This document shows positions 19,400 to 19,433 of a stretch of 64,000 nt of DNA, piece by piece. A program made the position numbers and the translations under genes. Below the pieces are notes generated by a model. That model was not told the DNA's origin. It did no database searches and was given only the letters and a program-made list of their open reading frames with translations. Within the stretch, counting starts at the first letter, position 1. Each line of letters begins with the position of its first letter. The DNA is taken from NCBI RefSeq assembly GCF_988242995.1, contig NZ_OZ547043.1; one strand, written 5' to 3'.

Positions 19400-19433
19400 A
19401 TTATAGATGGGGGGGATTTTGAGGGTTTCAACC
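19400..19433 (-). promoter_or_regulatory. Sigma-32 heat-shock promoter of hslVU
   Basis: Minus strand TTGAAA-ccctcaaaatccc-CCCCATCTA matches sigma-32 -35/-10 consensus (CTTGAAA / CCCCATNT); -35 overlaps the ftsN stop codon. Confidence 0.7.

Follow-up and report, generated by a model that had tools for sequence, protein, structure and literature searches.

The ftsN–hslV junction

The genes cytR, ftsN, hslV, hslU, and menA follow one another in this order on the minus strand of the 64,000-nucleotide stretch of DNA analysed here, which we refer to as the window. The window is E. coli DNA. The site between ftsN and hslV carries the heat-shock promoter from which RpoH (sigma-32) drives the hslVU (clpQY) protease operon, and this promoter abuts the end of ftsN (Table 1). 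Window positions 19300..19470 are identical (100%) to MG1655, and window coordinates are converted to those of MG1655 by adding 4,102,952. A 311-nt query spanning the site found a match in 5425 of 5426 complete E. coli genomes, with at least 99% identity in 5333 of them. Locus and sequence are the same as those of the E. coli hslVU (clpQY) promoter of Chuang et al. 1993 and Lien et al. 2009 (PMC2681174), with no difference. Published work and databases already cover the promoter, its start region, and the leader hairpin that stabilises the mRNA; this is ordinary E. coli biology and brings no gain for annotation. The small additions of the present analysis are the kept overlap between the stop codon and the -35 element and the likely double use of a single hairpin; no new kind of element is involved.

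Table 1. Features around the ftsN–hslV junction in window coordinates; signed positions are counted from +1 at 19396
Feature	Position	Strand	Remarks
ftsN	ORF 19428..20387	-	protein end ...AAGG*; DNA end GCC GGG GGT TGA
ftsN stop codon TGA	19430..19428	-	embedded in the -35 hexamer; preceded by Gly-Gly codons GGG GGT (19436..19431)
Sigma-32 -35 element TTGAAA	19431..19426	-	-35..-30 relative to the start at 19396
Run of seven C	19415..19409	-	spans the spacer end and the -10 start
Sigma-32 -10 element CCCCATCTA	19412..19404	-	-16..-8; CCCCAT at -16..-11
TATAAT hexamer	19405..19400	-	overlaps the 3' end of the sigma-32 -10; possible sigma-70/sigma-S -10
Second hslVU start	19401 (MG1655 4122353)	-	TRS Supplementary Data 4, PMC10687069; 66 nt 5' of GTG
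hslVU transcription start	19396 (A; MG1655 4122348)	-	SMRT-Cappable-seq PMC6131387 and TRS PMC10687069; 61-nt 5' UTR
Leader hairpin CCCCGUAC-UUUU-GUACGGGG	19390..19371	-	+7..+26 of hslVU mRNA; 5' stabiliser
RNA 3' terminus	19355..19369, peak 19361 (MG1655 4122313)	-	TRS Supplementary Data 2 and 4, PMC10687069
Rfam RF02401 'ClpQY_promoter' match	19390..19333	-	hairpin, U-rich linker, Shine-Dalgarno AAGGGG, GTG start
hslV	18805..19335	-	GTG start at 19335
hslU	17464..18795	-	3' of hslV

Sigma-32 promoter elements and transcription start

The -35 hexamer is composed of the final base of the ftsN Gly codon GGT, the entire TGA stop codon, and two further bases. A spacer of 13 bp separates it from CCCCATCTA, or of 14 bp if the -10 element is counted from CCCAT. 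Canonical sigma-32 promoters, such as dnaK P1 and those of groE (consensus reportedly compiled by Nonaka et al. 2006, a source cited in PMC10044804), combine TTGAAA, a spacer of 13–14 bp, and CCCCATNT with a transcription start 8–9 nt past the -10 element. The hslVU promoter resembles them in its -35 hexamer, spacer, -10 motif, and start distance, whereas the position 5' of the -35 element, where the consensus has a C-rich extension, is occupied here by GGGGG from the Gly-Gly codons of ftsN. By the sigma-32 consensus criteria (TTGAAA at -35 and CCCCATNT at -10, 13–15 bp apart), the promoter is a perfect match. A search of the 64-kb window for TTGAAA-N12-15-CCCCATNT returned this exact match (19431..19405, spacer 13) and no other, and none turned up in 100 dinucleotide shuffles.

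The two high-throughput starts, 19396 and 19401, lie 8 and 3 nt past the last base of CCCCATCTA, respectively. The original primer extension of the hslVU start is reportedly that of Chuang et al. in 1993. SMRT-Cappable-seq reports an hslV-hslU transcript at NC_000913.3 4120362..4122348 on the reverse strand in two conditions (PMC6131387). Lien et al. quoted the first start as 71 bp upstream of the start codon, and their 'full leader' primer begins with CATCTATAA (PMC2681174). The quoted distance corresponds to window position 19406, inside the -10 element and 10 nt off the high-throughput start, and the figure of 71 bp is probably imprecise. No entry for hslV occurs in the supplementary start-site tables from Kim et al. 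2012 (PMC3415461) or from Ettwiller et al. 2016 (PMC4782308), and PMC7730581 and PMC13353571 mention hslVU with promoter mapping absent. In a genomic SELEX study (PMC5493296), the hslV/ftsN spacer contains a site for RNA polymerase; the table concerns another sigma factor, and the entry was not used.

The original prediction had placed the -10 and -35 elements of a sigma-32 hslVU promoter within 19400..19433, with TTGAAA coinciding with the last codons and the stop of ftsN, so that ftsN read-through and heat-shock initiation would share the same DNA. Both elements indeed lie inside this span, with perfect consensus and published RpoH-dependence (PMC2681174), and the hexamer encloses the TGA. 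The prediction had also proposed comparison with the mapped start as a check, and the start at 19396 is consistent with the assigned elements (PMC6131387; PMC10687069). The sharing of DNA is likewise borne out by SMRT-Cappable-seq, in which ftsN belongs both to a cytR-ftsN unit and to an ftsN-hslV-hslU read-through unit (PMC6131387).

Published genetics and heat adaptation

The regulation of hslVU was dissected by Lien et al. (PMC2681174) with lacZ fusions and Northern blots in rpoH, rpoS, and double mutants. Expression and mRNA were lower in rpoH but not in rpoS mutants and rose on a shift to 42 °C, and fusions with 141 bp or 478 bp of upstream sequence were alike in behaviour. The C-to-T mutant m1, in which CCCC of the -10 element becomes CCTC, reduced expression 1.7-fold and abolished both heat induction and induction by RpoH. 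The same study addressed the region downstream of the start. Deletion of 40 bp of the UTR or of the inverted repeat (delta-IR) lowered the levels of mRNA and of ClpQ protein. Replacement of one arm by T, which destroys the stem (S-IR), had the same effect as the deletion and destabilised the mRNA, whereas a different sequence re-forming the stem (R-IR) rescued the mRNA levels. A rifampicin chase showed quicker decay of hslVU mRNA without the inverted repeat.

Experimental evolution has also touched this promoter. Two 43 °C rescue populations of REL1206 independently fixed a 1-bp deletion at REL606 4101844 (PMC7750951), and inspection of the sequence confirmed that this position is the first G of a G7 run, which is the run of seven C on the minus strand. 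A 2-bp deletion in the same run was found in BM28 strains, whose authors discuss a shorter sigma-32 spacer (PMC10044804). The C7 run of the promoter and the hslVU genes are thus repeated targets in heat-adaptation experiments (for C7, PMC7750951 and PMC10044804). As a conserved heat-shock protease, HslVU influences growth at extreme temperature through the level at which it is expressed.

Conservation of the stop-codon overlap

Loci for comparison were sampled by the HslV protein and not by the feature under test, which gave 80 loci on one-genome-per-species contigs, mostly from Enterobacterales with a few Vibrionaceae and one Alteromonadales genome. A strict regular expression for the promoter upstream of hslV matched at 64 of the 80 loci, and GGGTTGAAA and CCCCAT.T were invariant in 54/54 aligned promoters. 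Where ftsN could be recognised (77 loci), its TGA lay within TTGAAA in the same register (GGT-TGA-AA), with CCCCA at 11–16 nt, at 67 loci. The genera among these include Escherichia, Citrobacter, Enterobacter, Serratia, Yersinia, Hafnia, Photorhabdus, Xenorhabdus, Erwinia, Pantoea, Tatumella, Dickeya, Pectobacterium, Morganella, and Moellerella. The ten exceptions are the Vibrionaceae and the Alteromonadales genome, two Budvicia, and two Pantoea.

The last two codons of ftsN read NGG-GGT in 67/67 overlap loci, and the two preceding codons vary (39 different 12-mers). The promoter apparently fixes the synonymous positions in the final ftsN codons, since on comparison of these sequences the last two codons are constant and the ones before them are variable. 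The overlap is unchanged in most of the sampled Enterobacterales and is a clear example of promoter constraint on the terminal codons of an essential division gene.

A chance juxtaposition of the stop codon and the -35 element, free of any constraint, could be argued from the fact that overlaps between a gene end and a neighbouring promoter are common in compact bacterial genomes. The identical register in 67 of 77 loci over many genera, together with third positions that are constant in the last two codons while earlier codons are free to vary, makes such an accident very unlikely. The perfect TATAAT overlapping the -10 element raises the further question of whether the promoter might be used mainly by sigma-70 or sigma-S, the sigma-32 match being incidental. 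Basal expression does remain in rpoH mutants (PMC2681174), and sigma-70 activity was predicted for the region by the authors of PMC10044804. However, a sigma-70 promoter scan of 18700..20600 returned no full promoter, the TATAAT having no matching -35 at 16–18 bp. Moreover, neither the rpoS mutation nor mutation of an overlapping putative RpoS -10 noted by Lien et al. had an effect, whereas loss of rpoH and the CCCC-to-CCTC change abolish induction (PMC2681174). In the 54-sequence alignment, TATAAT is kept in Enterobacteriaceae and Yersinia (as TATAAT or TATACT) and lost in Erwinia and Pantoea (CCCCATATCTG), while TTGAAA and CCCCAT are invariant. Predominant use by sigma-70 or sigma-S consequently seems extremely improbable, and we retain sigma-32 as the factor serving this promoter.

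Several departures at the individual loci were also seen. The ftsN frame ends 84–106 nt upstream of the -35 element in two Pantoea (L068, L072) and two Budvicia (L047, L051) loci, in which (G)GGGTTGAAA is still there; the early end could reflect a shortened FtsN C-terminus or an assembly frameshift. The start codon of hslV across the loci L004–L083 is GTG nearly everywhere, with ATG in Edwardsiella, Moellerella, Proteus, and Morganella, and TTG in Candidatus Gullanella.

The leader hairpin

The DNA of the hairpin, CCCCGTAC-TTTT-GTACGGGG, has two arms of 8 nt (19371-19378 and 19383-19390) that are 100% complementary and enclose a 4-nt loop. An optional G19391-U19370 pair lengthens the stem to 9 bp, and the stem starts at +6 or +7 from 19396. 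By our own arithmetic, about 6 perfect 8-bp hairpins with loops of 3–8 nt are expected by chance per strand in 64 kb, and the significance of this hairpin lies in its conservation and covariation, together with the published experiments, rather than in its mere occurrence. The hairpin had been predicted with the right sequence and the right location, between the -10 element and the hslV GTG (19335), but its coordinates, given as about 19364..19383, were some 7 nt off the true 19371..19390. The accompanying suggestion that it may belong to the hslVU leader agrees with its position in the transcript, with the match to RF02401, and with the published mRNA-stabilising role (PMC2681174).

The match to RF02401 scored 63.6 bits against a gathering score of 42 and covered model positions 1-57 of 57. 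The family and this leader share the 8-bp stem, the linker, the Shine-Dalgarno sequence, and the GTG. Although it is named a promoter, it models the transcribed leader only, and the -35 and -10 elements lie outside the model. At the gathering score, RF02401 recovered 8 of 20 diverse loci, and it misses distant Enterobacterales leaders that still have a hairpin, for example in Tatumella, Dickeya, and Budvicia. Further Rfam matches above the gathering score in the window were the STnc490 Hfq-binding sRNA (2735..2858, +), the ES036 (CssrF) sRNA (5641..5682, -), an L31 ribosomal-protein leader (24002..24054, +), the OxyS sRNA (57717..57826, -), and a cobalamin riboswitch (62817..63006, +).

The hairpin is a conserved property of leaders of E. 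coli-like length. For positions +1..+40 of the predicted transcript, the folding z was below -2 in 52 of 56 leaders of E. coli length, with a median MFE of -17 kcal/mol, compared with 2 of 68 control windows inside ftsN. Over 68 loci, the median start of the hairpin was +6, and the stem sequence was very different between genera. Covariation was drawn from an alignment of 22 Enterobacteriaceae leaders, for which RNAalifold gave a 9-bp stem with 98.5% of cells paired and with both sides changed in 5 of the 9 pairs. The covariation score of 0.376, against 0.160 in shuffles, was reached by 0/500 of them, and slid controls had at most 54.5% of cells paired. The 54-sequence MAFFT alignment, which includes promoter DNA and has distant stems out of register, was not used for covariation; on it, RNAalifold missed the hairpin and instead formed pairs between the invariant promoter segments GGGG and CCCC.

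The GGGGG at 19432..19436 (-) is complementary to the C run of the -10 element at 19409..19415 (-), and the two are paired in a fold of the ftsN read-through RNA. This pairing is probably a by-product of the promoter constraint because both partners are invariant, without covariation.

Eleven loci have longer hslV leaders (91–173 nt) without a strong hairpin in the first 40 nt, namely L044, L048, L052, L054, and L065 (Photorhabdus), L069 and L070 (Xenorhabdus), L031, L041, L050, and L080. In the long leaders of Photorhabdus, a 43-nt hairpin at about +13..+55 replaces the short GC hairpin, and the other long leaders lack a strong early hairpin.

The initial 26 nt of the transcript fold into a GC-rich hairpin of 8–9 bp about 6 nt from the 5' end, and this structure shields the mRNA from decay, as published experiments have shown; by analogy with ompA and papA, it may do so by hindering 5'-end-dependent attack. 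The 5' stem-loops of ompA and papA (cited in PMC2681174) are likewise stable hairpins a few nucleotides from the 5' end that prolong mRNA life, and in all of them function depends on structure and not on sequence, as the restoration mutant indicates for hslVU. The hslVU leader differs from them in having about 5-6 unpaired 5' nucleotides, if transcription starts at 19396, and in that the same hairpin probably also stands at the 3' end of the mRNA of the upstream gene. Two other roles were considered and are unlikely. An RNA thermometer is at odds with the lack of a temperature effect (PMC2681174) and with a stem that does not touch the Shine-Dalgarno sequence, and a terminator for the plus strand is at odds with the lack of a U tract after the hairpin on that strand.

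The 3' end of ftsN mRNA

The ftsN stop codon and the promoter overlap, leaving no terminator-like hairpin between them. A terminator scan did not call the leader hairpin and found no other terminator-like hairpin for ftsN before hslV. The E. coli hairpin has a good GC-rich stem and a weak U tract (UUUGUACU), and it still forms in the modelled ftsN read-through RNA. The minus-strand 3' terminus at 19361 lies in the tail (UUUGUACUCU), 10 nt past the last stem base, and is annotated as the primary ftsN 3' end, with a 68-nt 3' UTR (PMC10687069). The Term-seq catalogue of Adams et al. 2021 has no minus-strand 3' end at the hairpin. The hairpin probably marks where ftsN mRNA ends, and some transcription reads through into hslVU; a 3' end beside a hairpin can equally come from exonuclease trimming.

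In sum, sigma-32 RNA polymerase recognises TTGAAA, which contains the ftsN stop, and CCCCATCTA 13 bp downstream, and starts at the A at window position 19396, as published experiments have shown. With no terminator of its own 5' of the promoter, ftsN sends its transcripts across the promoter. Some of these run on into hslVU, as shown by the long-read data, and others probably end about 10 nt past the same hairpin, where the 3' terminus has been mapped. The latter ends might be made by the hairpin and its weak U tract, either by weak intrinsic termination or by a block to exonucleases. The explanation as a whole, namely a sigma-32 hslVU promoter set against the end of ftsN, with a stabilising leader hairpin, ftsN read-through, and hairpin-linked ftsN ends, is in our judgement very probably correct. 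As a single hairpin apparently marks both the ftsN 3' end and the hslVU 5' end, the arrangement bears on the share of sigma-32-independent hslVU expression that comes from ftsN read-through.

The relative weight of the two roles of the hairpin might be seen differently. The hairpin could be primarily an intrinsic terminator of ftsN or a promoter-proximal attenuator, its leader position being a by-product of gene packing and stabilisation being secondary. The primary 3' terminus 10 nt past the stem (PMC10687069) and the lack of any other terminator-like hairpin for ftsN before hslV are in keeping with this, as are the T-rich tails seen in the comparison, with at least 5 T within 8 nt after the stem at 21 of 68 loci. 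In Candidatus Pantoea persica (L075), the scan calls the hairpin terminator-like, and 9 GC pairs are followed by TTTTTTTC. The Photobacterium locus L076 might represent an uncompacted layout, in which the scan finds a terminator-like hairpin upstream of a sigma-32-like CTTGAAA...CCCCA motif. Nevertheless, the disrupt-and-restore mutants of the stem were placed under a heterologous promoter, where stabilisation is independent of ftsN (PMC2681174), the U tract in E. coli is weak, ftsN-hslVU read-through transcripts exist (PMC6131387), and no minus-strand 3' end at this site appears in the catalogue of Adams et al. In Photobacterium (L073, L076, and L079), inspection by eye shows what appears to be a separate small inverted repeat 3' of the promoter motif, which also suggests that the role of a 5' hairpin is separable from termination. 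A primarily terminating or attenuating hairpin is thus a serious possibility, though one that we consider less than probable, and the terminator and stabiliser roles are not mutually exclusive.

An extended reading, which we put forward tentatively and hold to be rather unlikely, would make the hairpin a two-way element. It would be a leaky intrinsic terminator that ends ftsN mRNA, that also attenuates sigma-32 transcripts about 35 nt past their start, and that protects the 5' ends of the transcripts that escape; the unchanged overlap of the stop codon and the -35 element would be a relic of ancient compaction, through which a single hairpin had to serve both genes. If this were true, hslVU output would be set partly by read-through of a promoter-proximal attenuator, with the strongest relevance in Pantoea, Tatumella, and others in which the stem is followed by seven U.

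Two observations stand beside the preferred explanation of a stabilising leader hairpin with hairpin-linked ftsN ends. In the three Photobacterium loci, L073, L076, and L079, ftsN ends with TAG or TAA 134–165 nt before hslV, and a similar hairpin followed by a T run was noticed by eye in L073 and L079. On the opposite strand, the Term-seq data of Adams et al. 2021 contain a plus-strand RNA 3' end at 19395 (MG1655 4122347), labelled 'antisense ftsN' with a score of 1381, which lies 5 nt beyond the palindromic hairpin and is a direct neighbour (1 nt away) of the hslVU start on the minus strand at 4122348. An antisense RNA may really end there, guarded by the palindrome, or the signal may be a library artefact that stems from the abundant hslVU 5' end.
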